DNA from: Pseudomonadota bacterium
GTDB lineage: Bacteria > Pseudomonadota > Gammaproteobacteria > Arenicellales > Poriferihabitantaceae
Length of the DNA stretch: 64,000 nucleotides
Direction: 5' to 3'
Assembly: GCA_039029455.1 (NCBI GenBank)
Contig: JBCCGE010000003.1
Coordinates: forward strand, 20,542 to 84,541
The number at the start of each line of letters is the position of its first letter. The stretch's first letter is position 1. Below, piece by piece: positions 23,849 through 38,453 of this stretch. The notes below the pieces were generated by a model. That model worked only from the letters and a program-made list of their open reading frames with translations, searched no databases and was not told the DNA's origin. A program made the translations under genes and the position numbers.

Positions 23849-24700
23849 TCACTCTTCTTCAACCTTCGGTACGACGCCTTCAGCGCAACATACGGTATAC
23901 CAAAGCGCAGAGTTCGGATGAGATTTCCAGTCGTGAAGTCCATCAATGCCGGCTTTAAACGACGCTTCGTCAAACTCTTCATCGATCAGCATAGTGTCTT
24001 TGGCGCCCTCCAGTGCCCTGATCAGGTTGTCTGCGACGGCTTCAAATCTCTCATCGCCAGCACATCCTCCAAAAAACACGCTGGTGTTTCGAACAGAGGT
24101 AAGTCCTGCATCGAATAACAGGGATACGAGCCGACGCCCAACAAAAGGATCGTTTCCAAGTCTTATGAATGATCGAACATAAGCATCCCAGATCGGGCCA
24201 AACTCGCGTGGCTGCGGCCAGGGACGAAAATTGCCATGATCATCATCGGAAATAAAAACCTTCCCGCCAGGCCGAACGCAACGCACCATTTCACCAACAA
24301 CCTGTTCCGGACTGGACACATGCTCCAAAAGAAAACGACTGTGCGCGATTTCGAATGAGCCCCATTCGGTTTCGTCCATTGTCAGATTGAGTGCATCGCC
24401 CTGACGGAACTCAACAAGATCGGATTCTCCGACATGGTTAGCCAGTCCTTCTGCTTTCGATATCTGGTCTCTGTCCCGTTCGATGCCGACCACATGCCCC
24501 TGTTCCCCAACTGTTTTCGCCATAAGACGGGAAAACTGTCCGAGTCCACAGCCGACATCGAGTATTTTATCTCCGGGCTGAATGTTAAGTTCTCTCAGGC
24601 AGGCTTTGTTCAGGAGGTCATTGATCAGAGATAGACGGTGTTGCTCCTGTTGAGAATTGCCGTGAATATAACCGTCCTGTTCGGACGTCTGATTATTCAT
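23849..24700 (-). CDS. Class I SAM-dependent methyltransferase
   Basis: Start moved to ATG 24700 (MNNQTSEQDGY..); the track's 169-aa extension overlaps the upstream gene. Motif I ILDVGCGLGQFS and motif post-II RPGGKVFISD. ATGA overlap with the upstream stop. Confidence 0.85.
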   Translation of the reverse strand: MNNQTSEQDGYIHGNSQQEQHRLSLINDLLNKACLRELNIQPGDKILDVGCGLGQFSRLMAKTVGEQGHVVGIERDRDQISKAEGLANHVGESDLVEFRQGDALNLTMDETEWGSFEIAHSRFLLEHVSSPEQVVGEMVRCVRPGGKVFISDDDHGNFRPWPQPREFGPIWDAYVRSFIRLGNDPFVGRRLVSLLFDAGLTSVRNTSVFFGGCAGDERFEAVADNLIRALEGAKDTMLIDEEFDEASFKAGIDGLHDWKSHPNSALWYTVCCAEGVVPKVEEE

Positions 24701-25530
24701 ATCTGTACATCGCCTGATCGTGCACCGAAGCATTGTGCTGATTCGGGTGTCGAGTCTCCATACCAGTGCAATTGATTCTTTATGAAACCGTTTGAAGAAA
24801 GGTCCAGTATTCGAAAACCCTGCAGGGATCCATCCAGCACGTGCGAGGCCCAGAAATCTTCGTGGTCTGCGGACTCTCCGGTCTGGGCGTGCTTTACATG
24901 TGCAAAGACTGACGGTGTCGTAATCTGAATATGGGAGCCGACGCTTAAGACAGTATCCGTGTGAGTATGGCCGGCAATAACTCCTTTCACGTTGGTGTAG
25001 CGATTCAGCAGGGAAGTGAATTCGTCTGAGTTCCACAGTTGGCATCCGGAGGACGGACAAACTTTCAGCGGTGTATGGTGGAGCGCTATGAGAACGGGGT
25101 GCTGGCGGTATTTTTCCAGATTTCGCTCCAACTCCGTGAAGCCGGCAGGATCTACAAAGCCGTGGGAATGGCCTTCTACCTGTGAGTTGACAAACAAAAA
25201 TGCCCATCTCTGAATTACCGCACTACTCACACAATGGAATACATCAGAATTGAGTTCAGCCTGCATGTTCGAATAATCGTCATGATTGCCTGGCAGGGTG
25301 TACACCGGCACTTCAACATCCGACAGAAGATTTTTAAACCGTTTGTATGTGCGGACCGAACCAACTTCCGCAACATCACCGGTGACAATAATGGCATCCG
25401 GTTTTGGGCGCAGTTTGCCAAGCTCGCCGATTGCATTTGATAGCGAAAGACCCGTGTCTACCCCGTACAAATCCTGGCCCGGGTTCTCCGTAAGATGTAT
25501 ATCGGTCAGATGTGCAATACGGAGTGACAT
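24697..25530 (-). CDS. Metallophosphoesterase, CpdA-like 3',5'-cyclic-nucleotide phosphodiesterase
   Basis: IAHLTDIHL, VTGDVAE, LPGNHDD and IAGHTHTD, the calcineurin-like phosphoesterase motif set in CpdA order. Confidence 0.85.
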   Translation of the reverse strand: MSLRIAHLTDIHLTENPGQDLYGVDTGLSLSNAIGELGKLRPKPDAIIVTGDVAEVGSVRTYKRFKNLLSDVEVPVYTLPGNHDDYSNMQAELNSDVFHCVSSAVIQRWAFLFVNSQVEGHSHGFVDPAGFTELERNLEKYRQHPVLIALHHTPLKVCPSSGCQLWNSDEFTSLLNRYTNVKGVIAGHTHTDTVLSVGSHIQITTPSVFAHVKHAQTGESADHEDFWASHVLDGSLQGFRILDLSSNGFIKNQLHWYGDSTPESAQCFGARSGDVQI

Positions 25531-25818: not shown

Positions 25819-26481
25819 ATGTCAAAAAAAGTTAAAGTATCTCGACGCAATTTTTCCAAAACCATCGCAGCGGGTACGGCCGTAACAGGAGGTTTACAGC
25901 ATTGGTCAAAGCCTCTGGTGGAGTCTGCAATCTTGCCGGCGCATGCATCGTCCACTCCTACGCCCTCAACTACTGGTGAGCCCACGACAACTCCAATATC
26001 TGTACCTGCGCCCACCTCTACAATATCCCTCTACAATTCTTCAGGCTGGCTGGATGGTGTTGGCGAAAAGGGCGTAGAACCCTCTGACTATGATATGCAC
26101 GCGACATTTGAAGGAATTCCCACAGGCGCTCCACGAAGAATTTCGTTCAATATCCAACTAAGCATCGATGGAAACAATTTCGGGAGCAGTAATGTTGTAA
26201 TAAATGTTCCTGACGCAGGCTGGAGAAATAGTGTAGTCAACGCTGCAAATAGTTTGAGTCCATTCAATGTCCTTTCTGCGCCATGGTCTCTAACCTACAA
26301 TCCCGATTGGGAGATGGTTTTGTCCGTTGTAGAAAGTCTTGATAACCACGCTGGCGGATTTACACAAGCAAGCACAGTCGGCGCATGGGTCATTCAAGTA
26401 ACCGGAGGACAGGTATTTGACGCGATTGGTGCCAGCAACCGAAACGACTCATCAACTGGTGCGCGAATCCAAATCGCGTAG
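25819..26481 (+). CDS. Secreted hypothetical protein with twin-arginine-like signal and conserved HWSKPLVESAILPAHASSTPT module
   Basis: MSKKVKVSRRNFSKTIAAGTAVTGG (SRRxFxK Tat-like n-region), then the module shared with the 18666 frame, then a Thr/Pro linker and a beta-rich ~150-aa domain. 220 aa. Confidence 0.6.
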   Translation: MSKKVKVSRRNFSKTIAAGTAVTGGLQHWSKPLVESAILPAHASSTPTPSTTGEPTTTPISVPAPTSTISLYNSSGWLDGVGEKGVEPSDYDMHATFEGIPTGAPRRISFNIQLSIDGNNFGSSNVVINVPDAGWRNSVVNAANSLSPFNVLSAPWSLTYNPDWEMVLSVVESLDNHAGGFTQASTVGAWVIQVTGGQVFDAIGASNRNDSSTGARIQIA

Positions 26482-26496
26482 CCATTAGTCTGCTGA

Positions 26497-27138
26497 TTGT
26501 CGTCAAAAACCCCAAAACGGGATCGTGTCAGGCGCGCTGAAATAACAGCTGTCTCGCAGCTGGAGCCAGCTCCCGCAAGAATAGTTCAGAGTATCGCCGA
26601 TGAGTTTGGAGTAATTGCGCTACATGGCTCACGAGTTAGCGGAGTGTGGGCTGAGGACAGCGATTACGATATCGCTATCGCAGGATTCACCGCAGATAAG
26701 GAGGGCTATAGCAAAAGACTGAGCACCATTGCGCTACAGCACAATGTAAAAATCGACATTTGGGAAGGCGCGAACTTTAAGTCAAATCGCAAAGGCGTTC
26801 TGGTTGTATGCGGTAGCTCTATTGACCACGGATCAATTCATAAAGATTTTCCACTTACGCCGGAATTTGGACTCGTTGCACAGAACAGTGAGTTCGAAAT
26901 TCATCAAACCGAACCTGATTTTCAATTATTGAAAACGGGCACCAGGTTGCTTATCAAATTCAACAAGTATTCCATGAACATATATCAAAGATGTTTGACA
27001 CCTTGTCGAATTAGTGACCTAATTAATAACATTCAGCTGGACTACTTCTTTGACGGAAGTATTAAAGAAGATGTACTAGATGCGATTAACGTAATGATTG
27101 CGTATGGAGTTCTCAAATACTCTATTCCAAAGCCATAA
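26497..27138 (+). CDS. Nucleotidyltransferase (Pol-beta superfamily) domain protein
   Basis: LHGSRVSGVWAEDSDYDIAI matches the GS-x(9-10)-D-x-D motif, with a further acidic residue in VKIDIWEG. TTG start 15 nt after the upstream stop. 213 aa. Confidence 0.6.
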   Translation: MSSKTPKRDRVRRAEITAVSQLEPAPARIVQSIADEFGVIALHGSRVSGVWAEDSDYDIAIAGFTADKEGYSKRLSTIALQHNVKIDIWEGANFKSNRKGVLVVCGSSIDHGSIHKDFPLTPEFGLVAQNSEFEIHQTEPDFQLLKTGTRLLIKFNKYSMNIYQRCLTPCRISDLINNIQLDYFFDGSIKEDVLDAINVMIAYGVLKYSIPKP

Positions 27139-27198
27139 AATCTGGCAGTGTGACCGCGATGCTGGATTCGAACTCGGAAAAATCCAAGCATGAAAAAT

Positions 27199-27229
27199 AA
27201 TTGACGTTACAAATTTGTCAGTCAATTTT
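27199..27229. terminator. Imperfect hairpin (aattgac..gtcaatt) flanked by T/A runs between convergent genes; possible bidirectional terminator
   Basis: 7-bp outer stem plus an inner aca/tgt stem. TTTT follows on the + strand and ATTTTT on the - strand. Confidence 0.35.
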
Positions 27230-27268
27230 GAGTTCGTTAGTTGAAGTAAAGCTCTCTTTTTCACATGC

Positions 27269-28123
27269 CTATGGATAAACCTCAGGTACAAATGTCTGAT
27301 CGGTCATTGGAGGACGGACGTAGCCACCTTTATTCTTGCGAGGTTTAAGCTTGGGCACTTTCGCATTTGTTTCTTTATAAGGAATGCTGCTTAGAAGGTG
27401 ACTTATGCAGTTGAGCCTGGCGTGCTTTTTTACATCAGCATCAACCACATACCAGGGTGCCTGTTTGATGTCGGTATGCGCAAAATTGTCGTCTTTGGCC
27501 TTTGAATATTCAACCCATCGATCCCGGGATTCGAGGTCCATAGGGCTCAGTTTCCACTGTTTGGTAGGATCAAGGCGCCTGCCCTGAAAACGTTTTTCCT
27601 GCTCCTTATCGCTGACCGAGAACCAGTATTTTATAAGCTGTATTCCGCTTCGAACCAACATTCTTTCGAACTCCGGACACGACCGCATAAACTCACGATA
27701 CTCTTCGTTGGTGCAAAACCCCATGACCCGCTCCACGCCGGCTCGGTTGTACCAGCTTCGATCAAAGATCACCATTTCTCCGGCAGCCGGCAGATGCTCG
27801 GCGTAGCGCTGAAAATACCATTGGGTTTTTTCCCGTTCGGTCGGTGCTGGCAACGCCACTACGCGACAGACTCGCGGATTCAATACCTGAGTGATGCGTT
27901 TTATGACCCCGCCTTTGCCGGCGGCATCCCGTCCTTCGAATATCACCACTACTTTTAAACCTTCGTTTTTGATCCATTCCTGAAGTTTGATCAGTTCGAT
28001 CTGTAATCGAGCCAGTTCAGCCTCGTAAAACTTGGTGGTGATGCGACCGTCTTTTTTGGCCCGTTTGATATCCTGCTTCTTATCTTTGGCTTTCTTGCCT
28101 GTGTCAGCTTTCTTTTTACTCAT
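27269..28123 (-). CDS. ppk2: Polyphosphate kinase 2 (single-domain PPK2)
   Basis: Walker A IFEGRDAAGKGG, then NPRVCRVVALPAPTEREKTQWYFQRY and FDRSWYNRAGVERV. 284 aa with a Lys-rich N-terminal tail. Confidence 0.9.
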   Translation of the reverse strand: MSKKKADTGKKAKDKKQDIKRAKKDGRITTKFYEAELARLQIELIKLQEWIKNEGLKVVVIFEGRDAAGKGGVIKRITQVLNPRVCRVVALPAPTEREKTQWYFQRYAEHLPAAGEMVIFDRSWYNRAGVERVMGFCTNEEYREFMRSCPEFERMLVRSGIQLIKYWFSVSDKEQEKRFQGRRLDPTKQWKLSPMDLESRDRWVEYSKAKDDNFAHTDIKQAPWYVVDADVKKHARLNCISHLLSSIPYKETNAKVPKLKPRKNKGGYVRPPMTDQTFVPEVYP

Positions 28124-28165
28124 ATTAATGTTCCTCTTTGCTTGGATACTCGTTCTGTATCGAAA

Positions 28166-29593
28166 TTAAATCGAGTGACTCAGTCCGGAGTTTTGTTCTA
28201 GCTTTTCCGCCGCATCGATGCAGCGTTTCGCGATACTGTCGACATCGCCTTCTCCGTCGATCTCCTCAAGCACACCCATGTCGTGATAGTGATTGATAAT
28301 CGGTGCGGTTTGCATATGAAATGTTTTTAGTCGCGCCTGAACGGTGGTCTCATTGTCGTCATCGCGCTGGTATAGTGAACCGCCACACGCGTCACAATGG
28401 CCTGATTTTTTCGGTGGCTTGAAGTCAATATGGAAAGGTGACTGGCAATCGCTGCAGATCAGTCGCCCGGAAATTCGCTTGACAATTTCAGCGTCAGATA
28501 CACGGATGTATATGGCACCACTTATGGAGCGTCCAAGTGAACTCATTATTTCGCCGAGAGCAAGAGTCTGCGGCAGACTCCTAGGGAATCCATCCAGGAT
28601 AAATCCAGGTGTCACATCTTTTTCAGACAATCGGTCTTCGACCATGGCTTCAGTAACATCATCTGGTACAAGCTCACCGCGTTCCATGAAGCTCTTGGCG
28701 AGCGTTCCGAGTTCGGTATGATTGTTCAGGTTTTCACGAAACAAACTGCCCGTGGAAATATGGGGAAGATGCAGGTGACCCTGCAGATTTTCGGCCTGCG
28801 TGCCCTTTCCGGATCCAGGGCCGCCAATCAGTACAAGGTTAAAGTCTTCGGCGACGGTGTTTTTATCTGAACGGCTGAGGTCATTTTTTGTCGGTGTGTT
28901 GCGGATATCTTCGTTCTCTCCGGACTCATAACGAAAGCTTCCATTGTTGATGCTGTCCACAGCCGCTAATAACTCGCTTGAGATGGATTCAATGGGCTTA
29001 TTCGCATCGACGGTAAGCAAACGCCCGCTGCTCTTGTAGAAGTCAAGTACGGGTTGCAGCTCCCTTCTGAATGCACGCAGGCGAACCCGGATCAGGCTGC
29101 GAATATCGTCATTTCGAATCGTCAGCGCAGTGTCGCAGCGGTCGCAAAGCATTGAACGCTTTGGTTGATGGAATTCCACATGATAGCGCGCTCCGCAATT
29201 TGGACAGGTCTGACGACCAAGCAACCTCTCCATGACGACGGCGTCTGAAAGTTCGAGAAAGAGAACCGCGTCCAGCGTACGTTTGTGCTTGCCCAGTTCT
29301 GTGTCCAGAAAGCGAGCCTGATCCAGAGTCCTTGGATAACCGTCAACCAGAATATTCTGTGCAGCCGGTGCGTGGTGCAGCCACTCTGCCGCAATCGCGT
29401 TGACCACGTTGTCGGGAACCAGCTCACCACGTTCAACATAGTAGTTCGCTAGGAATCCAATGGCGTTGTGTTTTTCAACACTTGAACGCAGGAGTTCGCC
29501 CGTATTGAGTTGAATGAAATTAAATTTCTTCAACAGACGAGCTGAGTGCGTCCCTTTGCCAGCACCGGAAGGGCCAATCAGGCAAATATTCAT
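28166..29593 (-). CDS. adk: Tandem (double) adenylate kinase fusion protein
   Basis: Two complete Adk modules. Module 1 spans aa 1-~215: GPSGAGKGT, DGYPRT, Zn-lid CPNC..CDRC, IRNDD. Module 2 spans aa ~251-475: GGPGSGKGTQ, DGFPRS, Zn-lid CSDC..CDAC, QRDDD. A ~35-aa polar linker joins them. Confidence 0.9.
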   Translation of the reverse strand: MNICLIGPSGAGKGTHSARLLKKFNFIQLNTGELLRSSVEKHNAIGFLANYYVERGELVPDNVVNAIAAEWLHHAPAAQNILVDGYPRTLDQARFLDTELGKHKRTLDAVLFLELSDAVVMERLLGRQTCPNCGARYHVEFHQPKRSMLCDRCDTALTIRNDDIRSLIRVRLRAFRRELQPVLDFYKSSGRLLTVDANKPIESISSELLAAVDSINNGSFRYESGENEDIRNTPTKNDLSRSDKNTVAEDFNLVLIGGPGSGKGTQAENLQGHLHLPHISTGSLFRENLNNHTELGTLAKSFMERGELVPDDVTEAMVEDRLSEKDVTPGFILDGFPRSLPQTLALGEIMSSLGRSISGAIYIRVSDAEIVKRISGRLICSDCQSPFHIDFKPPKKSGHCDACGGSLYQRDDDNETTVQARLKTFHMQTAPIINHYHDMGVLEEIDGEGDVDSIAKRCIDAAEKLEQNSGLSHSI

Positions 29594-29915
29594 CGGATCA
29601 TTATAGGATTACCTTTTGAATGAATCCAGTGTAGCGCCGTTCGTGCCGCAAAACGCGATAATCGGAGGTCAACAGCGATCAAAATATGCCCCACATTGCT
29701 GAGTCACGAATGGTTTATAGGTTAAGTCGCGCCTTAATCCTTTCGGGCCGTTACGCTCACTTCGGGCGGCGCATATTCATCATACTGGGGCAAATCGTCA
29801 CAAATAGTTTCAATCTCAGATCTGGAGGCGACAAATATGTGCTTTTCGCTCGCAGTCGCGTGTTGCGGGTGCATCCCATCGTCGAGAGTTGCGGGCACGT
29901 ACCATCAAAAAAAGT

Positions 29916-30692
29916 CTATTCGCGGACATATCGTGGATAAGTGTGTTTGCTCATCTTCGAAAACTCCAGATCAATTTCTACAGTTTTAAACGGTTCTTCG
30001 GTATCCGTTGTTGCAAGAACATTGCCTTCCGGATCGATAATCCAGGCAAGACCACCACAGTCCGCCTTGGAACCGTGTGGACACCAGAGATTTGACGACA
30101 GGCTGTACGCACCGGAGCAGACGGCAGCCGCCTGACCGCCTGCAAGCCATTTTTCGGTAGAATCGTGAGGAGTGGCTCGCGGCGTGCACAGAATATCTAC
30201 GCCTGATGATGCGTAATGCCTGGCCCATTCGAAGAACCACATTTCGGTGCAGATTTGTGTGGCGATAATGGCGTTTGAAAAAATGGTGGTTTCAAACTCT
30301 TTTTCACCCCTTTCATACCAGGACGATTCCCAATAGCCCTCTTCGTTGGGCAAATAGTATTTTTCATGAATCCCGAATGCAGACAGGCTATCCTGATACC
30401 AGATATACGCCTGGTTGCGACGACTTCCGCATGCTTTAACAATGGGGCGAGTGCCAACGACAGCCCGGGCTCCGATGTCTTTCAGATTGTCAATACGACT
30501 ATTATGAGATTCGACCGCTTCAAGCCAGCGACTGTGGCTGGGAGTTTTGTCGGCAGCAAGCCACTCGAAAAAAGGCATTTCGGGTAGTAGAACAAGTTCG
30601 CTTGCATTTGATTTAACGTGTTCAGCAAGATCTGAAATATATCGATCAAGTTCAGACGCTCTGGAGTCTATCTGACATACAGTAACTTTCAT
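29916..30692 (-). CDS. Carbon-nitrogen hydrolase (nitrilase superfamily) protein
   Basis: MKVTVCQID.., Glu in LVLLPEMPF and Cys in ATQICTEMWF. ATG at 30692 preferred over TTG at 30704. Confidence 0.8.
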   Translation of the reverse strand: MKVTVCQIDSRASELDRYISDLAEHVKSNASELVLLPEMPFFEWLAADKTPSHSRWLEAVESHNSRIDNLKDIGARAVVGTRPIVKACGSRRNQAYIWYQDSLSAFGIHEKYYLPNEEGYWESSWYERGEKEFETTIFSNAIIATQICTEMWFFEWARHYASSGVDILCTPRATPHDSTEKWLAGGQAAAVCSGAYSLSSNLWCPHGSKADCGGLAWIIDPEGNVLATTDTEEPFKTVEIDLEFSKMSKHTYPRYVRE

Positions 30693-31209
30693 TGTCGTGA
30701 TCAAATCTGGTCAGGTTTTGTGTCATTTTCCTTACATCGGCTCAGCCATGCAACTGACACCCGGCGGCGCCACTCACGATCCTATGAACGATAAATGCCG
30801 AACTCAGAACCAGTGGTACTGTCAGGGAAAACAATTTCGCTTGCGGCGCAAACCCCGACTGACCACAAAACTAACGAGCACCCAAAAGTAGCAATAGGAT
30901 CAGTTATAAAGGGTTTTAGAATAAACGCGGCAATTCTGGGATTGCATATGGCGACACCGCAGACAAGCCCATCTGAACCAATATCGAAACCGCGTTGTTC
31001 AGTCTATAGCCCAAACAAAACAAATTGGCGACGGCCCTGGCGAGTCGCGGACATACGGCAGACTTGTCTATTGATTTCCGGAAAGTCCGATGCAATGGAA
31101 AAATGGATTGCGTTGCCGACAGCATCCGCATAGCCGGACAAACACAGCAATACCTTTTATTGAAATTCGCGTACAAGCAGTGGATAACCAGTGTTCCAGT
31201 CGGAACTCA

Positions 31210-31830
31210 TCAATCCATTCCCGGTAATTGCTCAAGTCTCCCGTACTCTCCTGACTTAAAATCAACATTTCCGTGCGCAAATTCCAGCGCCATCTCTGTC
31301 ATATCAAATCCCCAGAACAGCCGATTTCCAACTTGAAGGGTTGGCACACCAAACACGCCAACTTCAATCGCTTTCTGGGTGCTGTCGACCAGAGCGGCTT
31401 TGACTTCCGGGTTACCGCAGCGGTCTTCAATATCTATGTCACCAAATGTTTGCCGGACCAGAGTTCTCATGCCGTCAGATGCGGGGTCTAATCCCATTTC
31501 CCAGATTCCCCTGAACAGAAAATCAATCAAATCAGGGTCGCAATCCATCGAGAGCGTAAGGCGAAGCGGCATCAAAGGATGGAATGGATGATAGGGTGGT
31601 GTTTTGAACGGTATGCCGTGTTTTTCTGCGAGCCAATGACAATGCTGATAGGTCATCGCGCGCTTGGCGGGGATTTCTACCGGTCCTTTGTGCCCCCAGT
31701 GTTTGAGCAGCCCGGCGAACAGCACGGGTCGAGCATTGATCTCCCTGATAAGCCCCTGTTCTCGCAGAGTTACGTACTGCAGGTAAGCGAAGGGCGAAAT
31801 AAAATCGAAATACCAGTTCAGAGACTTCAT
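31210..31830 (-). CDS. 2-hydroxychromene-2-carboxylate isomerase-like DsbA-family protein
   Basis: WYFDFISPFAYL N-terminus and GVFGVPTLQVGNRLFWG; 206 aa. 4-nt overlap with the upstream gene. Confidence 0.8.
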   Translation of the reverse strand: MKSLNWYFDFISPFAYLQYVTLREQGLIREINARPVLFAGLLKHWGHKGPVEIPAKRAMTYQHCHWLAEKHGIPFKTPPYHPFHPLMPLRLTLSMDCDPDLIDFLFRGIWEMGLDPASDGMRTLVRQTFGDIDIEDRCGNPEVKAALVDSTQKAIEVGVFGVPTLQVGNRLFWGFDMTEMALEFAHGNVDFKSGEYGRLEQLPGMD

Positions 31831-33146
31831 AAAGAATCGGACGTCTGCGAGTTCTTGTCATCGTACTGTCGCCCGAGCCAGAGTGCGATAAACATCCAGA
31901 CGGCGGCGAGAGCGGCGGAGATCAGGGCAATTGCATGCGCATTCATGCCGAGCGTCTTCATGCCCGTAAAGATCCAGGCACTGATGGTATCGCCTGATCT
32001 GTGAATAGTGGTGTCAACAAAGTTTTTGGCCTTATATTTTTCTTCTCGTCCGAGCACCACAAACAGCATTTCCCGGGCGGGTTTTGCCAACGCATAGTTG
32101 CCGGCGCGACGCACAACCTGAACCACAACCATGACGGCAAGAGATGGAACAATCGCAATGGCCAGGAAACCAAAGATCAGCAGAGTCGGAAGAATCGCCA
32201 GAGTTTTTCCAAGACCGAGCGAGTTGACGATTCTGCTGGTGAGAAACAGCTGAAGCAACAAAGTCAGAAAGTTGGCGGCGAAATCCACTGCGGCAAAAAG
32301 TTGCGTTCGTTCGGCAGAGTCAGTCAGCAACGTTTCCACCAGCTTGGCCTGCTGGATCGCGAGAAAGGTGGACAACAGAGTGTACATCAGAATGAGCAGG
32401 CAAATTCCAAGCAGATATCTTGAGCGAAGAACCAGGCGAATTCCGTCCCAGATGCTGCCTGCAAGTTTGGTCTCGTCAAGTACGGACTGCTTATCAAACT
32501 GCTCATTAGTTTTTGAGCGCGCCCACTGTGACAGCGATCGCGTGCAAAAGATTGCGCATATCAGGACACCGGCTGAGACCAGCATAAGATTGGCCAGTCC
32601 AACCTTATCGACCAGCAAGCCGGTAACCAAAGGGCCGGTGAGCGCACCCGCCGTGCCACCGGCCGCAATAAACGCGAACAGTCGTCTCGACTGATCCTCG
32701 TCGAAGATGTCCGACATAAAACTCCAGAACACGGAGACAACAAACAGGTTGAATACATTAACCCAGACGAAGAACACCCCGGACAACTGCCAGGTTTCGC
32801 TAAAGCGATTGAAAGCGAAATAAAACGTGATCAGACAGGCTGAAAAAAACAGATAGGTCGCAGGCAAAAGTTTTGCCCGCACAACACGATTGGTGAGCCA
32901 GCCAAACAGCGGCACCACGGCGAGCATGGCCAGGAAGGTTGCAAGTAAAAGCCATTGCAAATTGTCGACACCGATTCGAATCACCATTTCGCCGCGAATC
33001 GGTCGAATAATGTAATACGAGCACAGCAGCAGATAAAAGTAAGCAAATGACCACAACAACGCTCGGGTTTCGCCGCGTTTGACGGCGATCAGCCGTGACA
33101 GCCAGGGCAAAAGAACATGCGTGTTTATCGGCGTAACGGTTTTCAA
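31827..33146 (-). CDS. MFS-type transporter resembling the TLC (ATP:ADP antiporter-like) family
   Basis: 439 aa, about 12 TM. N-terminal RALLWSFAYFYLLLCSYYIIRPIRGEM resembles the Y-x-I-L-R-P-x-R-D/E signature I associate with Npt/TLC-like transporters. Subfamily call is tentative. Confidence 0.7.
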   Translation of the reverse strand: MKTVTPINTHVLLPWLSRLIAVKRGETRALLWSFAYFYLLLCSYYIIRPIRGEMVIRIGVDNLQWLLLATFLAMLAVVPLFGWLTNRVVRAKLLPATYLFFSACLITFYFAFNRFSETWQLSGVFFVWVNVFNLFVVSVFWSFMSDIFDEDQSRRLFAFIAAGGTAGALTGPLVTGLLVDKVGLANLMLVSAGVLICAIFCTRSLSQWARSKTNEQFDKQSVLDETKLAGSIWDGIRLVLRSRYLLGICLLILMYTLLSTFLAIQQAKLVETLLTDSAERTQLFAAVDFAANFLTLLLQLFLTSRIVNSLGLGKTLAILPTLLIFGFLAIAIVPSLAVMVVVQVVRRAGNYALAKPAREMLFVVLGREEKYKAKNFVDTTIHRSGDTISAWIFTGMKTLGMNAHAIALISAALAAVWMFIALWLGRQYDDKNSQTSDSL

Positions 33147-33170
33147 AGTGATGTTACGCGAACCGCGCGA

Positions 33171-33929
33171 TCAACCGCAGGGAATATCCGGATATCCGGC
33201 AGAACGGGTGCCTGCAATCGGCTGGTTGTCAGCCGCATGATAAGTAAACACAACAGAGGTTTTTACTGATTCCGCGCTGTTGCGTCCGGCGGCATGCAGC
33301 GTACCGCAATGGAAAAACAGCACGTCGCCAGCCTTCATTTCCGCCGGGATGGCGCTGTCGATAAGAGCCTGATTTTCCTCGATATCGGTTCGCAGAAAAT
33401 ACGCGGCATCGTATCGACCGCGATCCAGTTTTGTGGTGTGCGTCCCCGGAATCAGCAGCATGCCCCCGTTTTCAATATATTCATCACCCAGCGCAAGCCA
33501 CACGCTGACCAGATCCGGCCGATCGAAAAGCCAATAGCGAATATCCTGATGCCATAGAGTAGCGCTGCTAAAACCCGGATGTTTTGTCATGACGCAGTTG
33601 TGATGATTCTGCGATAGCTCGATATGGTCATTGCCAAGAAGTTGCTTGACCCGACCTACCACATCGTCGGATGTCGACCATTCCCGGAATACCGCATCAC
33701 GGGTGTAGGCGTGCAGCAGTCTGCGCGGTGTATCGCCGCCGGGTGACAGCCGATCTGCCGGTGCGCCGGGGTACTGCACATCAGTCTCAAATTCGAGAGG
33801 AGCTAATGGTGGATTCAGCGATGCGGTGATCGCGTTTCGCATCGCGGTGCACCCGTCGGTGTCCAGCAGCGAACGAGCAACAATAAATCCGTTCTGTTTA
33901 AATTCATCTATTTCTCTATTAGAAAACAT
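33171..33929 (-). CDS. Phytanoyl-CoA dioxygenase (PhyH) family Fe(II)/2-oxoglutarate dioxygenase
   Basis: FKQNGFIVARSLLD, HxD in LWHQDIRYW and distal His in FFHCGTLHAAGRN. Confidence 0.8.
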   Translation of the reverse strand: MFSNREIDEFKQNGFIVARSLLDTDGCTAMRNAITASLNPPLAPLEFETDVQYPGAPADRLSPGGDTPRRLLHAYTRDAVFREWSTSDDVVGRVKQLLGNDHIELSQNHHNCVMTKHPGFSSATLWHQDIRYWLFDRPDLVSVWLALGDEYIENGGMLLIPGTHTTKLDRGRYDAAYFLRTDIEENQALIDSAIPAEMKAGDVLFFHCGTLHAAGRNSAESVKTSVVFTYHAADNQPIAGTRSAGYPDIPCG

Positions 33930-33947
33930 TCGCCCTACCCTTCCGGA

Positions 33948-34409
33948 TTAACGATCCAGTAAATTCCCTTTGACCGAGAAAGGAATGCTTTTTAATGCGC
34001 TGAGAAACCGGATATCGCCTTTCATTTCATAGTCAAAGTTCAGTCCTCCTCCTGAGAGAATGTCCTTAAATGCATCTTTTGTCTGCAGCAGATTGGTTGT
34101 CACCTGAATGGGTAATTCTGTGATGGTATTGGCTGCCAGCGTGGTCGATTGGTCTGTGCGACCTTCTCCTACGGAAATGCCGCTGAATGTCAGTACGAAA
34201 TCAAGTCCACTCATCGGCAGTGGGATGGCGTTGGGGTTAAACGCATTCAGGTTAAAACGGAATACCTGCTCATCGAGACCGAGTTCAATGATCTCGACAT
34301 TCCTAATGGAAATTTCAGGTTTAGTGGGGACCAGAGTACCGCCACTGCAGGCGGTTAAAAGCAGCGCACATAAGGTCACTACAAAACATTTAAGGGAGGT
34401 GCGTGGCAC
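33948..34409 (-). CDS. LEA type-2 (NDR1/HIN1-like, water-stress) family lipoprotein
   Basis: Lipobox LLLTAC|SG. The beta-sandwich pattern FRFNLNAFNPNAIPLPMSGLDFVLTFSG is typical of LEA_2. Confidence 0.7.
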   Translation of the reverse strand: MPRTSLKCFVVTLCALLLTACSGGTLVPTKPEISIRNVEIIELGLDEQVFRFNLNAFNPNAIPLPMSGLDFVLTFSGISVGEGRTDQSTTLAANTITELPIQVTTNLLQTKDAFKDILSGGGLNFDYEMKGDIRFLSALKSIPFSVKGNLLDR

Positions 34410-34500
34410 GAATTCACCTGTTGTTTAAGCAGTGAGTAGTATAGGATTATTTTCGTACCGAAAGCCAATATCTGTCGGAATTCGAAGAGGAGAAACCCAC

Positions 34501-35331
34501 ATGAAAATTACGCCTTTGAACGCCCCCTTCGGTGTGGAGTTTTCCGACTTTGATGTGCGCGAAATGACGGATGAGGATATGGCGATAGTGCAGACGGAGC
34601 AGAACAAGCACGGGGTGATTTTTTTTCGCGATCAAAATCTGACTCCGGACGAGCACATTCGGTTTGCAAAACGATGGGGCGAAATTGTTATCAACCGATT
34701 CTTTGAGCGAGTCCCGGGCTATGAGGAAATTGCGCAGGTTCGAAAAGAGCCGCAGCATGAAAGGGTGGTTGGCGAAGACTGGCACACTGATCACTCCTAC
34801 GATGAGGCACCTGCCCGCGGCTCTATACTTTATGCACGCGAAGTACCGTCGAGCGGAGGAGATACGTTGTTCGCCAATATGTACCTGGCTTACGAAGCCT
34901 TATCGGACGGCCTGAAAGACACCCTCGCAGGACTGAAAGCGTGGCATTCCAGTCGACACGTCTTCAGCAAGGAAGCCATCGACGCGACCCGATCCAACGA
35001 GGATCGATTTCAAAACCATGGACAGGCGGTGCAGGACAGTCTGCACCCGGTGGTCATAACCCACCCGCTGAGCGGTCGAAAATCTCTGTACGTCAATCCG
35101 GATTTTACCCGTCAATTTGACGGCTGGACGCTGGAGGAATCCCGACCGTTACTGGAATATCTGTACAACCATGTGCAGCAGGATCAGTTCATTGCACGGT
35201 TTAAATGGCGCACTGACTCGATCGCCTTTTGGGACAATCGTGCCACCTGGCATCAGGCACAAAACGATTATCCCAACCAGCGACGGCTCATGCACCGAAT
35301 CACGCTTGAAGGCGTTCGACTCACCGCGTAA
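34501..35331 (+). CDS. TauD/TfdA family Fe(II)/2-oxoglutarate dioxygenase
   Basis: Start at ATG 34501 after the SD agaggaga. GEDWHTDHSYDEAPARGSILYA (HxD) and WDNRATWHQA. Confidence 0.85.
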   Translation: MKITPLNAPFGVEFSDFDVREMTDEDMAIVQTEQNKHGVIFFRDQNLTPDEHIRFAKRWGEIVINRFFERVPGYEEIAQVRKEPQHERVVGEDWHTDHSYDEAPARGSILYAREVPSSGGDTLFANMYLAYEALSDGLKDTLAGLKAWHSSRHVFSKEAIDATRSNEDRFQNHGQAVQDSLHPVVITHPLSGRKSLYVNPDFTRQFDGWTLEESRPLLEYLYNHVQQDQFIARFKWRTDSIAFWDNRATWHQAQNDYPNQRRLMHRITLEGVRLTA

Positions 35332-35406
35332 TACGGTTCGATCCGGGCCGAACTGTTTTCACACGCCGACTGCTACTATTTCCTTCCGACTCCAATTGTG
35401 TAAAGC

Positions 35407-36294
35407 GTGAGCCCGCTGCGACAACCGACTCCGTACGATATCGCGCGACTGTTTTTTGTCGGAGCGGTCTGGGGCGGCTCGTTCATTTTTATTGCACTGG
35501 CGCTGAAAGGCTTTGGTCCGATCAGCATAGCGGCGTGGCGGATCGCGACAGCGGCGGCGGTATTGGTGGTTGCCGGGGTGTTGATGAAACAGAGCTTCTC
35601 GGCATCACCCGGTGAGTGGAGCATCATTTCGGCGGTAGGCCTGCTGAACAGCGCTGTGCCATTTTTTCTGATCAATTGGGGTCAGCAGTTCATCAGCTCG
35701 GCCGAGGCGGCCCTGCTGCTGGCGACCGCGACATTCGTCGCGCTGCTGATTTCCCACTTTACAAGTCAGGATGAGCGCATTACCTGGGCTCGCGGTATAG
35801 GCGTTACCGTAGGTTTCAGTGGCGTCGCGGTGTTGGTTTTGAGCGAGCTGATTTCGACCGGCATAGGCGGATTCAAGGGTCAGCTGGCGGTTATTCTGGC
35901 CGGTTGCAGTTACGCAACCTCATCCGTGCTGGCCAGACGAATTACTCATCTGCCTTCGATTTCTACTTCGGCCAGCACGATGATTACCGCCAGCGCTTAC
36001 ATGGTGCCGCTGGCTTTTCTGTTTGAGCAGCCCTTGTCCGCAATCGACCAGTGGGTACCCGTGATGTCAGTCGTGTATCTGGGCGTAATCGGGACAGCTT
36101 TGGCTTTCGTCATTCGCTTTAACATTATTCGCACCAATGGTGCTGTTTTTATGGCTCAGGTCGGTTATCTGGTTCCGTTTTTCGGTGTGATCTGGAGCTG
36201 GCTGTTCCTCGCCGAGGCCATCTCCTGGCAGACCGCCGTATCGCTCAAGCTGATTCTTATCGGAATCGCCATTACACGCCGCGCACGGCACTAA
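35407..36294 (+). CDS. DMT superfamily (EamA-like) transporter
   Basis: 295 aa, 10 hydrophobic helices, GTG start. Confidence 0.8.
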   Translation: MSPLRQPTPYDIARLFFVGAVWGGSFIFIALALKGFGPISIAAWRIATAAAVLVVAGVLMKQSFSASPGEWSIISAVGLLNSAVPFFLINWGQQFISSAEAALLLATATFVALLISHFTSQDERITWARGIGVTVGFSGVAVLVLSELISTGIGGFKGQLAVILAGCSYATSSVLARRITHLPSISTSASTMITASAYMVPLAFLFEQPLSAIDQWVPVMSVVYLGVIGTALAFVIRFNIIRTNGAVFMAQVGYLVPFFGVIWSWLFLAEAISWQTAVSLKLILIGIAITRRARH

Positions 36295-36295
36295 T

Positions 36296-37195
36296 ATGCT
36301 GTCGGCCTTTTCCAGTGCCCACTTCGTTCTGCCGTTGCCCGCAGGACATCGATTCCCGATGGCGAAGTATGCCCGGCTCCACCAGCGAATTGCAGAAAGC
36401 AAGACCATACGAATAAAGACGCCGCCGCGCGCAACAGATGAGCAACTCGCTCTGGTTCACAGTAGCGAATATATAGAGTCAGTCACGACGGGCTCTTTGT
36501 CCGCCGAAGCTCAGCGTCGAATCGGATTTCCATGGTCAGAAGCAATGGTGGAGCGTTCCCGCCGTTCAGTTGGTGCTACCTTGCAGGCACTGCGCACGGC
36601 CATGGTCTCCGGGGTCAGCGTTAATCTTGCAGGTGGCACCCACCACGCCCATCACAGTTTTGGCAGTGGGTTCTGCGTATTTAATGATGCCGCCGTCACT
36701 GCACGGATGTTGCAGCAGGAAGGCATGATAGACCGCGCTTTGATTATTGATCTCGATGTGCATCAGGGTGACGGTACTGCAACCATATTTGCAAATGACG
36801 ATTCCGTGTTTACATTTTCAATGCACGGCGCAAGTAATTTTCCGGTCAGAAAACAGATCTCTGATCTCGATGTCGAGCTGCCTGATGGTATGGGTGATGA
36901 GGGGTACCTTCGGCGTCTGGATGAATCGCTGGAGTTGATTGAAAACTGCTTCCATCCTGACTGCGTGATTTATCTGGCGGGCGCCGATCCATTTGAAGGT
37001 GATCGGCTGGGAAAGCTGGCCCTGAGCAAGAACGGTCTGCGGCAACGTGATCACCGTGTTCTGGAATTTGTACGCAGACATCATCTTCCAGTCGCGATTA
37101 CCATGGCAGGCGGCTATGCCAACGACATCGATGACATTGTCGATATTCACTACGCCACTATTGATCTGGCGCGGTTGCACAATCTGTCGAATTAA
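36296..37195 (+). CDS. Histone deacetylase-family (acetoin utilisation/deacetylase) protein
   Basis: LAGGTHHAHHSFGSGFCVFND and IIDLDVHQGDGT. The start is 1 nt after the upstream stop. Confidence 0.85.
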   Translation: MLSAFSSAHFVLPLPAGHRFPMAKYARLHQRIAESKTIRIKTPPRATDEQLALVHSSEYIESVTTGSLSAEAQRRIGFPWSEAMVERSRRSVGATLQALRTAMVSGVSVNLAGGTHHAHHSFGSGFCVFNDAAVTARMLQQEGMIDRALIIDLDVHQGDGTATIFANDDSVFTFSMHGASNFPVRKQISDLDVELPDGMGDEGYLRRLDESLELIENCFHPDCVIYLAGADPFEGDRLGKLALSKNGLRQRDHRVLEFVRRHHLPVAITMAGGYANDIDDIVDIHYATIDLARLHNLSN

Positions 37196-37247
37196 TCGTC
37201 TGTGATAAGGTCAAATTCACAAAGCCACCGCAAGAAGCTGAAATCTG

Positions 37248-38453
37248 ATGTTCCGTACCTCTTTGCTGCTGATTTTCGGAATCACCGTGGGTGCTGTTCT
37301 CGGCTGGTGGACGCGTGGGGAGCTGGAAACAGCCGGGCGTCCGCAAGCAGCAGTTGCAAAAGCTGCCGTAAACCCAGAGACGACAAAGGGTCCGGACAAT
37401 GTCGCGGTCTCTCCGCAAATTATCGAAGAAATATCGGAGAGCCCGGTTTTCGCCATCGAGTCTGTACCGATTGATGAATTCCCGGGCGTGGACTCCAAGC
37501 GGTCGGTTGCCATTGAGCTCACAGCGGCAAACATCGATGACTTTATGACACTGTGCTCGGGTCAGAGTGACAGCACCATGGACCATTGCCGGCAACAGAT
37601 TATGGAGTCCAATCGTCGTGAAGATCTGGACATGGGTCAGGCAATTTATCTGCATCAACAGTGGCTGGCCGAAAATCCCTCCGATATTGGTATTGGCATT
37701 CAGTATGCTCAGCTTCTGATCGACGGTGGCCGCTACACTGAGGCACTGGATTATCTGGATCAACTTCAGAGTCAAACCAGCGGCGAGTCTGATCTGGTTC
37801 GGGTGCAGCAGTGGCAGTTTCGACTCGGGCAACAGGCTTTGAAACAGCTCTCTCTCGAAGACGACAAGTTGCTGATGTTGCCGCTTCTGGACCGACTCAT
37901 TGTTATGGTCCCTGACCACGCGCCGTGGCGATTTGCGCTGGCGCAGCTGCAGTATGATGCCGGCAAGCTGAGTGAATCTCTAGACAGTCTGGGCTACCTG
38001 CTGTACGACAATGTATTCGGAGAGCGCGCACAGGCGCTCTACGATTCCATCATCGACCGGATGAGTTTGTCCAATTACACTGAAGTGCCGCTGCTAAGAA
38101 AGGGAAACCACTTTGTGGTGAAGGCGCTGGTGGGTGGTCGCGAACAAATGAACCTGTTGATCGACACCGGCGCATCACTGACAACAATCGATAAACGCAG
38201 CCTCAAACGCAGTGGCCTGCTGCAGGGCGGTCAGCCAATCACCCTGAATACGGCAGGCGGTCGGGTTGCCTCCACACTACAGCCTCTGTCGAGCCTGAGC
38301 CTCGCCAATCAAACACTATACAATCTCAAAATAGCGACTTTGGACCACAGCCAGAATCAGGTTGACGGTCTTCTGGGTATGGACTATCTGGGTCAGTTTG
38401 ACTTTGTTCTTGATCAGGATCAGGCCATTCTGTTTCTGACCCCAAAACAATAG
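37248..38453 (+). CDS. TPR-containing retropepsin-like (clan AA) aspartic protease
   Basis: N-terminal TM anchor, central TPR-like repeats, and C-terminal GNHFVVKALVGGREQMNLLIDTGASLTTID plus LLGMDYLGQF. Confidence 0.75.
   Translation: MFRTSLLLIFGITVGAVLGWWTRGELETAGRPQAAVAKAAVNPETTKGPDNVAVSPQIIEEISESPVFAIESVPIDEFPGVDSKRSVAIELTAANIDDFMTLCSGQSDSTMDHCRQQIMESNRREDLDMGQAIYLHQQWLAENPSDIGIGIQYAQLLIDGGRYTEALDYLDQLQSQTSGESDLVRVQQWQFRLGQQALKQLSLEDDKLLMLPLLDRLIVMVPDHAPWRFALAQLQYDAGKLSESLDSLGYLLYDNVFGERAQALYDSIIDRMSLSNYTEVPLLRKGNHFVVKALVGGREQMNLLIDTGASLTTIDKRSLKRSGLLQGGQPITLNTAGGRVASTLQPLSSLSLANQTLYNLKIATLDHSQNQVDGLLGMDYLGQFDFVLDQDQAILFLTPKQ

Follow-up and report, generated by a model that had tools for sequence, protein, structure and literature searches.

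The locus described here lies on the minus strand of a stretch of DNA of 64,000 nucleotides (the window), and combines a gene for a tandem adenylate kinase (Adk) with a downstream gene for a PPK2 polyphosphate kinase. Its features are as follows:

27269–28123, minus strand: single-domain PPK2 of 284 aa, assigned to class I, with Walker A GRDAAGKGG and Walker B FDRSWY, the latter followed by the class I signature Asn126.

28124–28165, minus strand: spacer of 42 nt, with a Shine-Dalgarno sequence (AGAGGA) some 8 nt before the PPK2 ATG.

28166–29593, minus strand: tandem adenylate kinase gene, encoding 475 aa (NCBI protein MEM7193634.1, 'MAG: adenylate kinase [Pseudomonadota bacterium]').

28946–29593, minus strand: module 1 (aa 1–216), a long-form Adk with a four-Cys lid, P-loop GPSGAGKGTH, 12 intact catalytic sites and the residues S9/H16/F95.

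28844–28945, minus strand: inter-module linker (aa 217–250), variable in sequence, constrained in length and predicted to be disordered.

28166–28843, minus strand: module 2 (aa 251–475 plus the stop codon), a canonical-like Adk with P-loop GGPGSGKGTQ and a four-Cys lid, the invariant catalytic half of the family.

29594–29915, minus strand: upstream intergenic region of 322 nt, presumed to hold the promoter.

A scan for consensus promoters and terminators yielded sites that were no more frequent than in shuffled sequence, and the search for Rfam families in the interval 26900–30200 detected none, sub-threshold snoRNA noise aside. The 42 nt between the Adk and PPK2 genes gave no terminator-like call, and the two genes are probably co-transcribed.

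Two ADK and two ADK_lid stretches are detected by Pfam in the 475-aa protein, and the NCBIfam adk model NF001380 matches it at 482 bits (cut-off 251) in two stretches, the better of which covers residues 252–462. As judged by PF00406, TIGR01351 and NF001380, module 2 is an adenylate kinase, with a full-length match and 12/12 catalytic sites. The same holds for module 1, which supplies the second ADK and ADK_lid stretch, has 12/12 sites as well, and matches the Aquifex Adk at 147 bits when examined alone. Both modules carry a P-loop (GPSGAGKGT in module 1, GGPGSGKGTQ in module 2), the DG[YF]PR motif, a pair of cysteine motifs in the lid (CPNC..CDRC and CSDC..CDAC, respectively) and the R-x-DD motif. 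The lid cysteines (C130/C133/C150/C153 in module 1 and C380/C383/C400/C403 in module 2) identify the long-form zinc-lid subtype; across 117 sequences, their conservation is complete or no lower than 90%. All these observations agree with the description in the earlier note of two complete Adk modules in one chain.

Each module is a full-length match to the canonical long-form zinc-lid Adk of Bacillus and Geobacillus (PDB 1ZIN, 1P3J; NF001380/TIGR01351), with P-loop, AMP-binding site, four-Cys lid and R-x-DD common to both modules; in comparisons with structures of Bacillus-type Adks, module 2 reaches 44–48% identity and a TM-score, normalised to the target, of about 0.8. Unlike canonical Adk, however, the window protein has two modules per chain joined by a linker of constrained length, is encoded outside the secY-adk-map operon, and bears in module 1 a signature (P9S, Q16H and A95F) whose combination is found in none of 159 stand-alone Adks. 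The linker is polar and about 34 aa long, very close to the ~35 aa of the earlier description, and an AlphaFold2 model predicts disorder there, with pLDDT values under 50 for residues 224–247. Across the family, its length ranges from 26 to 36 aa, and is 31–33 aa in 83% of cases. Despite the disordered linker, the model of the tandem protein reaches a pLDDT of 89 and a pTM of 0.83, and the latter value suggests that the modules pack together in a defined, fixed way.

Tandem Adks had been thought to be unusual in bacteria. The databases indicate otherwise: at least 120 clusters at 90% identity have this architecture (the best 120 matches all have it), their source labels include Pseudomonadota, Omnitrophota, Verrucomicrobiota, Anaerolineae and Alphaproteobacteria, and the protein name is always plain 'adenylate kinase'. 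On these sequences, the tandem Adk is read as a bacterial family that is widespread, goes back to an ancient fusion, is so far uncharacterised and spans several phylum-level taxa. The literature searched, which lay mostly outside subscription journals, yielded no paper on tandem Adks of bacteria or on linkage of PPK2 and adk genes.

The origin of the family was examined in a tree of 60 first modules (M1), 60 second modules (M2) and 82 canonical Adks, with eukaryotic sequences left out. M1 and M2 are each monophyletic (60/60 in both cases), and together they make up a single clade, with all 82 canonical Adks outside it. Identity between M1 and M2 is 46%, compared with 38% and 42% to canonical Adks. 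Since the two groups are monophyletic and sisters to each other, the family is best traced to a single ancient duplication of a long-form zinc-lid Adk, followed by fusion.

The genomic position of the tandem gene is also distinctive. Among the canonical adk loci sampled, secY is found in 50 of 82 and map in 39 of 82, while neither gene lies near the tandem gene, be it in the window or at the other tandem loci examined. The window gene is thus located away from the position of the housekeeping adk in the spc ribosomal-protein operon, between secY and map/infA. As none of the tandem genes occupies the secY-adk-map position, the protein is probably an accessory Adk. A metagenome search with an alignment of module 1 only had returned 80 canonical adk loci, which were reused as a negative control; a search of genome contigs with a single protein gave three loci, two of them with single-domain Adks detected by tblastn (L001 and L002) and one without a scorable Adk match (L003).

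Twelve catalytic sites were scored per module, including the P-loop Lys, R36, R88, Q92, R119, R123, R156, D158, D159 and R167; the twelfth site is R171 in module 1 and R421 in module 2. In the window protein, neither module has lost any of the 12 sites or the AMP-base contacts, and both look catalytically complete; module 1 keeps its four lid cysteines plus the AMP and ATP base contacts. Module 1 is nonetheless the more divergent half, as previously noted: the window module 1 is 46% identical to other first modules, whereas module 2 is 63% identical to other second modules. Within-group identity is likewise lower in M1 (0.55) than in M2 (0.68), and M1 evolves faster.

The difference extends to the catalytic residues. 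Substitutions at catalytic sites are found in module 1 of 26/120 core family members listed, but in module 2 of only 1/120 (p = 1e-7). Among distant representatives of 50% clusters, module 1 is substituted in 9/9 and has no lid in 5/9, while module 2 is intact in 8/9. Module 1 thus appears as the eroding half of the family and module 2 as its strictly conserved catalytic half. Because of the substitutions and the loss of the lid in distant lineages, module 1 catalysis seems to be dispensable in part of the family, and it may be weak in the window protein. The possibility that module 1 is a decayed, unconserved duplicate does not apply to the window protein, whose module 1 is intact, but is partly borne out for the family.

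These observations might be explained if module 1 were mainly non-catalytic. According to this interpretation, it would be a nucleotide-sensing or structural half of a pseudo-dimer that tunes module 2, and the protein would amount to a single Adk with a regulatory twin. Besides the bias in substitutions and the faster evolution, the S9/H16/F95 signature foreign to stand-alone Adks speaks in its favor, as does the fixed packing hinted at by the pTM. A precedent is found in PA3455, a two-domain class II PPK2 in which tandem P-loop kinase domains are present and the N-terminal copy is inactive (PMC8776046). However, the 12 sites of module 1 are intact not only in the window protein but also in 94/120 of the relatives listed, and the conservation of lid cysteines and base contacts in the window protein is hard to explain without catalysis. 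We thus regard a non-catalytic module 1 as possible though rather unlikely. As module 1 of the window protein keeps every catalytic and ligand-contact residue, it would most likely provide a second functional site for AMP and ATP, whose kinetics may be altered.

The PPK2 gene begins 42 nt downstream of the tandem gene on the same strand and encodes a single-domain enzyme with a lysine-rich N-terminal tail. Both points had been made in part before (position, strand and single domain), and the profile searches concur: the protein matches PF03976 at 367 bits and TIGR03707 at 386 bits (cut-off 301.8), while TIGR03708 and TIGR03709 remain below cut-off. In PPK2 enzymes, an Asn residue after Walker B is the signature of class I (PMC8776046). 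The two PPK2 domains and the Gly after Walker B that typify a class II polyP:AMP phosphotransferase (PAP) are both missing from the window protein. Hence, its sequence assigns it to class I, the NDP-phosphorylating type, and not to the polyP:AMP phosphotransferases.

A PPK2 gene is found downstream of the tandem Adk gene, on the same strand, in 3/9 independent tandem lineages, compared with 0/82 canonical adk loci (Fisher p = 0.0007–0.003, about 0.001). In the window, the PPK2 is adjacent and of class I. The second lineage (L005/L088/L089) has a class I PPK2 that is 77% identical to that of the window, with a Na/Pi symporter gene and an 81-aa ORF between the tandem Adk and PPK2 genes. In the third (L092/L096), L096 encodes a class II polyP:AMP phosphotransferase (TIGR03708, 657 bits; cut-off 547.65), and L092 has a PPK2 match of 31.7 bits (cut-off 22.3). 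The remaining six lineages (L006, L087, L090, L091, L093/94 and L095) show no PPK2 in the available flanks, which indicates that the linkage is restricted to certain clades. The closest relative (P0002), whose contigs are short, is among these six. As a side observation, the 81-aa ORF of the second lineage is lysine-rich, and an 81-aa ORF in L095 is unrelated to it.

PPK2 genes of two classes are therefore found beside the tandem Adk gene more often than expected by chance. One might still propose that the tandem Adk is an alternative general-purpose adenylate kinase, and that its adjacency to PPK2 in the window is incidental. The diversity of the tandem Adk neighborhoods, which include two-component systems, acs-actP, GST and transporter genes, is compatible with this idea, and so is the lack of a nearby PPK2 in most lineages. 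Such a proposal is, however, unlikely given the contrast with canonical loci and the absence of the tandem gene from the spc operon. Furthermore, the linkage recurs with PPK2s of two classes and with a Na/Pi symporter, a pattern more in keeping with selection than with one arrangement inherited from a common ancestor. The co-occurrence of tandem Adk and PPK2 that the earlier note proposed to look for is thus real in a third of the lineages and missing from the available flanks of the others. The idea of a functional couple also gains support from the linkage, although the window partner turns out to be a class I enzyme rather than PAP.

Altogether, the interpretation that we favor, with a probability of roughly 60%, is that the window protein belongs to an ancient tandem Adk family and may act as an accessory Adk coupled to polyphosphate-nucleotide phosphotransfer via PPK2. 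One long-form zinc-lid Adk would have been duplicated and the copies fused, with a linker of some 32 aa between them. Module 2 would run the reaction ATP + AMP ↔ 2 ADP. PPK2 would interconvert polyP + ADP and ATP, while the tandem Adk would turn AMP + ATP into 2 ADP, so that polyP would be linked to the whole adenylate pool and AMP could be raised to ATP at the expense of polyP. In the reverse direction, removal of ADP by Adk would pull polyP synthesis.

A variant with a different role for module 1 can also be conceived: subfunctionalisation to another NMP (GMP, CMP or UMP), as suggested earlier, or to another phosphate donor. The P-loop region of module 1 is distinct (P9S, Q16H) and accompanied by A95F. 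In addition, GDP is often the preferred substrate of class I PPK2 enzymes (PMC8776046), and a GTP-linked module 1 would be a logical partner. Nevertheless, both modules retain Q92, V59 and T31, the determinants for the AMP base, as well as the phosphate arginines R36 and R88, and they resemble each other at the ATP-base residue R119 and in the C-terminal loop. Position 16 is known for its influence on the stability of Bacillus Adk (Q16L variants are present in the PDB) and not for an effect on specificity. With catalytic sites and AMP-base contacts intact in both modules, a different NMP specificity is unsupported, and we deem this variant very unlikely. An error of assembly (raised in the earlier note) or of gene calling, by which two neighbouring adk genes would have been merged, can be dismissed: an independent assembly (Logan contig L004) is colinear with window positions 26979–38085 at 99.99% identity, through the fusion junction, uninterrupted tandem ORFs of 466–474 aa are found at 11 independent loci, the 120 or more database clusters have an uninterrupted tandem ORF too, and linker length is conserved.

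Returning to the accessory Adk coupled to PPK2, a more elaborate and rather speculative proposal, to which we give limited credence, can be made. Tandem Adks would be obligate asymmetric pseudo-dimers in which M2 performs the chemistry and M1, with an S9/H16/F95 signature not seen in stand-alone Adks, has come to influence kinetics or allostery and, in many lineages, is turning into a pseudo-enzyme; at the same time, the tandem Adk, a PPK2 of either class, the Na/Pi symporter and the lysine-rich 81-aa protein would make up a dedicated and hitherto undescribed polyphosphate-adenylate buffering module in several clades.

In the study of enzyme dynamics and energy homeostasis, adenylate kinase is a textbook case. 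The tandem family offers a natural, ancient and covalent Adk pair with a confidently predicted inter-module arrangement, in which one half is found at varied stages of decay depending on the lineage; it is thus a ready system for studying how a duplicated enzyme becomes a regulatory or pseudo-enzyme partner. Pairing with two classes of polyP kinase and a phosphate importer provides genetic support for the idea of a polyP-Adk energy buffer, which has so far rested mainly on biochemistry and biotechnology, and natural Adk-PPK2 pairs might serve for polyP-driven ATP regeneration. The degree of surprise is moderate, since each component is familiar by itself and databases already contain the family in abundance.

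Couples of Adk with a polyP:nucleotide phosphotransferase that produce ATP from AMP and polyP have been described, namely PAP plus Adk and E. coli PPK1 plus Adk (background on polyP-driven ATP regeneration in PMC8776046 and PMC3163519), and overproduction of PPK1 in E. coli enhances Adk and PAP activity (PMC3163519). The window pair resembles them in its components. However, the combination of class II PAP and Adk is found at the L096 locus only, and the class I partner in the window (ADP/GDP to NTP) implies a different order of reactions: Adk would make ADP from AMP + ATP, and PPK2 would then recharge ADP. Known couples, moreover, involve an ordinary single-domain Adk and were defined biochemically, not as gene clusters. 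The likeness to PA3455 lies in the duplication of a P-loop phosphotransferase in tandem, with an N-terminal copy that tends to lose catalysis and a C-terminal copy that stays active; PA3455 belongs, however, to a different protein family, and the N-terminal module of the window protein is intact at every catalytic site.

The domains of the eukaryotic kinases AK5 and AK8 are short-lid and AK1-like, and AK8 is axonemal. AK7 and AK9 had been put forward as eukaryotic analogues of the window protein, but AK5 and AK8 fit better, as they have two AK domains that are both active and, like the window protein, consist of one polypeptide of ~475–560 aa with two complete AK domains (PMC10056885). The position of M1 and M2 as sisters within bacterial long-form Adks, in the tree without eukaryotic sequences, suggests that the bacterial tandem has arisen independently of AK5/AK8. 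In a Foldseek search, the predicted structure aligned over 463 columns with a chain of 475 residues (9fqr_G8) from the axoneme of bovine sperm, which is presumably a two-domain AK. Identity was 23%, with a TM-score of 0.38 and an rmsd of 25 Å, values that do not speak for common descent with AK5/AK8 or for a similar geometry; in the model, the arrangement of the two domains differs.

The 475-aa ORF described in the earlier note as a fused double adenylate kinase (tandem Adk) does encode two complete modules (M1, N-terminal; M2, C-terminal), with every motif quoted there. Pfam detects two ADK and two ADK_lid stretches, and the NCBIfam adk models likewise give two matches in the ORF (482 bits for NF001380, whose cut-off is 251). 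The placement of a single-domain polyphosphate kinase gene 42 nt downstream on the same strand was also borne out, both by the ORF list and by a single PF03976 match of 367 bits:

28166-29593, minus strand: tandem Adk, 475 aa (ORF list, Pfam, NCBIfam)
27269-28123, minus strand: PPK2, 284 aa, single-domain, class I (ORF list, Pfam, NCBIfam, Walker B signature)

The PPK2 passes TIGR03707, the equivalog of class I (386 bits, cut-off 301.8), and scores below the cut-offs of the models for classes II and III. In addition, an Asn follows Walker B directly (FDRSWY-N126), which is a class I signature (PMC8776046). No further Adk or PPK2 copies were found within the 64-kb window. Co-transcription of the two genes is plausible, as the 42-nt gap holds a Shine-Dalgarno sequence (AGAGGA) 5' of the PPK2 start and yielded no call of a terminator-like site. 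All class I PPK2s linked to a tandem Adk (the window and loci L005, L088 and L089) have an N-terminal extension, rich in lysine and 25-50 aa long, that falls outside the PPK2 profile match; in the window PPK2 it comprises aa 1-26, MSKKKADTGKKAKDKKQDIKRAKKDG.

An assembly artefact, a possibility raised in the earlier note, is ruled out as the source of the fusion: L004, an independent Logan assembly of SRR22824298, matches window 26979-38085 at 99.99% identity and stays colinear with it across the module junction, and uninterrupted tandem ORFs of 466-474 aa are found in 11 loci from other samples. The fusion is thus genuine. NCBI lists an identical protein as MEM7193634.1 ('MAG: adenylate kinase [Pseudomonadota bacterium]'), encoded on a contig of 102 kb.

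Nor is the architecture rare in bacteria, as had been supposed. When 5.8 billion clustered proteins were searched, the best 120 matches were all 461-530 aa long, with 96-100% query coverage, 46-59% identity and two ADK domains each, so that at least 120 clustered-protein matches share the two-ADK architecture. Their source labels are Pseudomonadota, Omnitrophota, Verrucomicrobiota, Anaerolineae or Alphaproteobacteria, and they are named merely 'adenylate kinase' or 'hypothetical protein'. Upon 50% clustering, the bacterial double Adks reduce to about 10 representatives of 437-479 aa. No bacterial tandem Adk was found among PDB chains, and no paper describing one was found in a literature search of incomplete coverage; as far as could be determined, the architecture is widespread yet uncharacterized. 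The representative library also contains many proteins of 900-2,700 aa (P0121-P0175), in which as many as 14 Adk stretches were matched and 4-6 P-loops occur. Presumably of the ciliary or flagellar types of eukaryotes, they are a separate matter from the bacterial doubles.

In a neighbor-joining tree of 60 M1 modules, 60 M2 modules and the 82 canonical Adks from fetched loci, M1 and M2 are each monophyletic and together form one clade that includes none of the canonical Adks. Mean identity is higher between M1 and M2 (46%) than between either module and canonical Adks (38% for M1, 42% for M2). Altogether, these observations point to one ancient duplication and fusion, and hence to a new, large bacterial tandem-Adk family of single origin. 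The linker between the modules is variable in sequence and predicted to be disordered (AlphaFold2 pLDDT < 50 at residues 224-247), yet it is tightly constrained in length (26-36 aa, with 31-33 aa in 83% of members).

The greater divergence of module 1 noted earlier extends to the whole family. M1 is the faster-evolving module, with a within-group identity of 0.55 compared with 0.68 for M2. The window M1 is among the most divergent, and its 32% identity to the window M2 is the family minimum. Divergence had been taken as a hint of a different NMP specificity, a proposal that finds no sequence support: the AMP-base determinants T31, V59 and Q92 and the ATP-side residues are equally conserved in M1, M2 and canonical Adks (E. 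coli Adk numbering, from a reference sequence used for numbering only). M1 is marked instead by P9S, Q16H and A95F. This 'SHF' combination is a new M1-specific signature, found in 41/60 M1 and 0/60 M2 modules and absent from all stand-alone Adks compared (0/159). In engineered Bacillus Adks, position 16 serves to tune stability (Q16L entries appear among the Foldseek matches), and substitutions of P9 in E. coli Adk presumably change Km, not specificity.

The main alternative to an active M1 in the window protein is that this module is a pseudo-enzyme, and its relatives lend weight to the idea. Among 120 core members, at least one substitution at 12 catalytic sites is present in 26 M1 modules and in a single M2 (p = 1e-7); those of M1 include R36H, R88S/Q/H, R156W/Q, D84H/E/T and D158E/T/N/G. 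In distant 50%-cluster representatives, M1 substitutions are found in 9/9 (K13N in P0124, R88M/S/C/G in four others), the M1 lid insert is lost in 5/9, and M2 is intact in 8/9. M1 lacks either the whole lid insert, K13 or R88 in P0124, P0130, P0132, P0133, P0134 and P0136. P0124 is degenerate in both modules; the other distant lineages combine a decayed M1 with a pristine M2, and represent natural intermediates of pseudo-enzyme formation. Catalytic erosion of M1 thus progresses across the family, a new observation. The concentration of substitutions in M1, with nearly none in M2, suggests that M2 is the indispensable catalytic half, and retention of M1 even where catalysis appears lost implies a structural or regulatory contribution. 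A parallel is found in two-domain class II PPK2s, whose N-terminal domain is retained despite lost catalysis (PMC8776046). In the window protein, however, K13, R36, D84, G85, R88, Q92, R119, R123, R156, D158, D159 and R167 are kept in both modules, along with four lid cysteines in each. Being fully intact, the window M1 is most likely active as an enzyme.

An AlphaFold2 model of the tandem Adk, built from a 117-sequence alignment, had a mean pLDDT of 89.2 and a pTM of 0.83. For two 215-aa modules on a disordered linker, such a pTM suggests a confidently predicted mutual arrangement. Each module matches Bacillus-type Adk structures (Foldseek, target-normalized TM about 0.8). The whole chain aligns with 9fqr_G8, a 475-residue bovine sperm axoneme chain, presumably a two-domain AK, with 23% identity, TM 0.38 and an rmsd of 25 A, values that indicate a different inter-domain geometry in the model. 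The architectural analogues in eukaryotes are AK5 and AK8, in which both AK domains are active (PMC10056885), rather than AK7 and AK9, the counterparts named earlier.

The genomic context of the tandem gene was compared with that of 82 canonical adk loci (80 single-domain metagenome loci and two genome loci; 664 kb of flank in total). Pfam-confirmed secY and map are found in 50 and 39 sampled loci, respectively, and at no tandem locus; hence, the tandem gene is distinct from the spc-operon adk, and we take it to be an accessory paralogue. PPK2 lies downstream on the same strand in 3/9 independent tandem lineages and in the flank of none of the 82 controls (Fisher's exact test, p = 0.0007). The difference holds for controls with at least 1.2 kb (0/63, p = 0.0014) or at least 3.5 kb (0/49, p = 0.0027) of downstream flank. 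In the window lineage, the adjoining PPK2 is of class I. In L005/L088/L089, the genes after the tandem Adk are, in order, a 604-aa Na/Pi symporter, a lysine-rich 81-aa ORF and a PPK2 of class I with 77% identity to that of the window. In the third lineage, L096 has the tandem Adk followed by a 494-aa polyP:AMP phosphotransferase (PAP; TIGR03708, 657 bits, cut-off 547.65), and in L092 a PPK2 truncated by the contig end starts 72 nt past the Adk stop codon. No PPK2 was found in the available flank, in some cases only 1.5-2 kb, of six lineages (L006, L087, L090, L091, L093/94 and L095). This new, statistically supported linkage is real but confined to certain clades, and its occurrence with PPK2s of two classes speaks for functional selection and against one inherited arrangement.

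The linkage supports the polyP-Adk couple proposed earlier, with the correction that the window PPK2 is of class I and not of the PAP class that had been named. All components are of known kinds. The class I PPK2 would catalyze polyP(n) + ADP (or GDP) <-> polyP(n-1) + ATP (or GTP), and the tandem Adk, AMP + ATP <-> 2 ADP; together they would tie AMP to the polyP store, with AMP + 2 polyP-phosphates -> ATP as the net reaction. In the reverse direction, Adk would draw off ADP, otherwise limiting for PPK2-driven polyP synthesis; PA2428 is efficient in such synthesis only with an ATP-regeneration system (PMC8776046). Phosphate cycling, whichever way it runs, is compatible with the Na/Pi symporter of L005/L088/L089. 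In the L096 clade, PAP would provide the classical couple (AMP + polyP -> ADP, then 2 ADP -> ATP + AMP), comparable to the effect of PPK1 overproduction in E. coli, which is reported to enhance Adk activity and to yield PAP activity (PMC3163519).

Further neighbors are as follows:

31827-33146, minus strand: 439-aa MFS transporter, on the strand of the tandem Adk and 2.2 kb upstream of it
26497-27138, plus strand: 213-aa ORF, convergent with PPK2
25819-26481: 220-aa ORF with a signal-like N-terminus, before the 213-aa ORF
24697-25530, minus strand: CpdA-like metallophosphoesterase, 1.7 kb downstream of PPK2, same strand
L088:11549-11794, L089:11576-11821, L005:11635-11880: lysine-rich 81-aa ORF, between Na/Pi symporter and PPK2
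L096:11181-13379: SulP/STAS anion transporter, the next gene after PAP downstream of the tandem Adk; a cNMP-binding domain forms its C-terminal part

The MFS protein may be a nucleotide transporter relative: with 50 bits it exceeds the gathering score of Pfam TLC (ATP/ADP transporter), but it reaches only 33 bits against the NCBIfam NTP/NDP exchange transporter model (cut-off 387). Among NCBIfam models, the CpdA-like protein, a putative AMP producer, is matched best by that of 3',5'-cyclic-AMP phosphodiesterase, at 122 bits where the cut-off is 225. The 452-aa ORF that overlaps its gene (23849-25207) was called too long; the methyltransferase encoded there has about 283 aa. The 213-aa ORF has weak Polbeta/NTP_transf_2 nucleotidyltransferase matches just under gathering scores, and the 220-aa ORF has no family match.

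The 81-aa ORFs are extremely lysine-rich and conserved (about 72-75% identity between loci), have no Pfam family and are absent from the window; a product so strongly basic would suit polyphosphate binding. In the same lineage, sequences of the NAD kinase family (PF01513) are located upstream of the tandem Adk, in divergent orientation, at L005:6611-7633, L089:6525-7547 and L088:1-285, with the divergent gene counted in two of the three loci. Some NAD kinases take polyP as donor, and this one may be part of the same polyP-linked neighborhood. In an Anaerolineae MAG (L091:3606-9422), the tandem Adk comes directly after acs-DUF4212-actP on the same strand and is followed by a cNMP-binding/CBS/DUF294 protein; because acetyl-CoA synthetase (Acs) is AMP-forming, this arrangement points to another AMP-recycling context.
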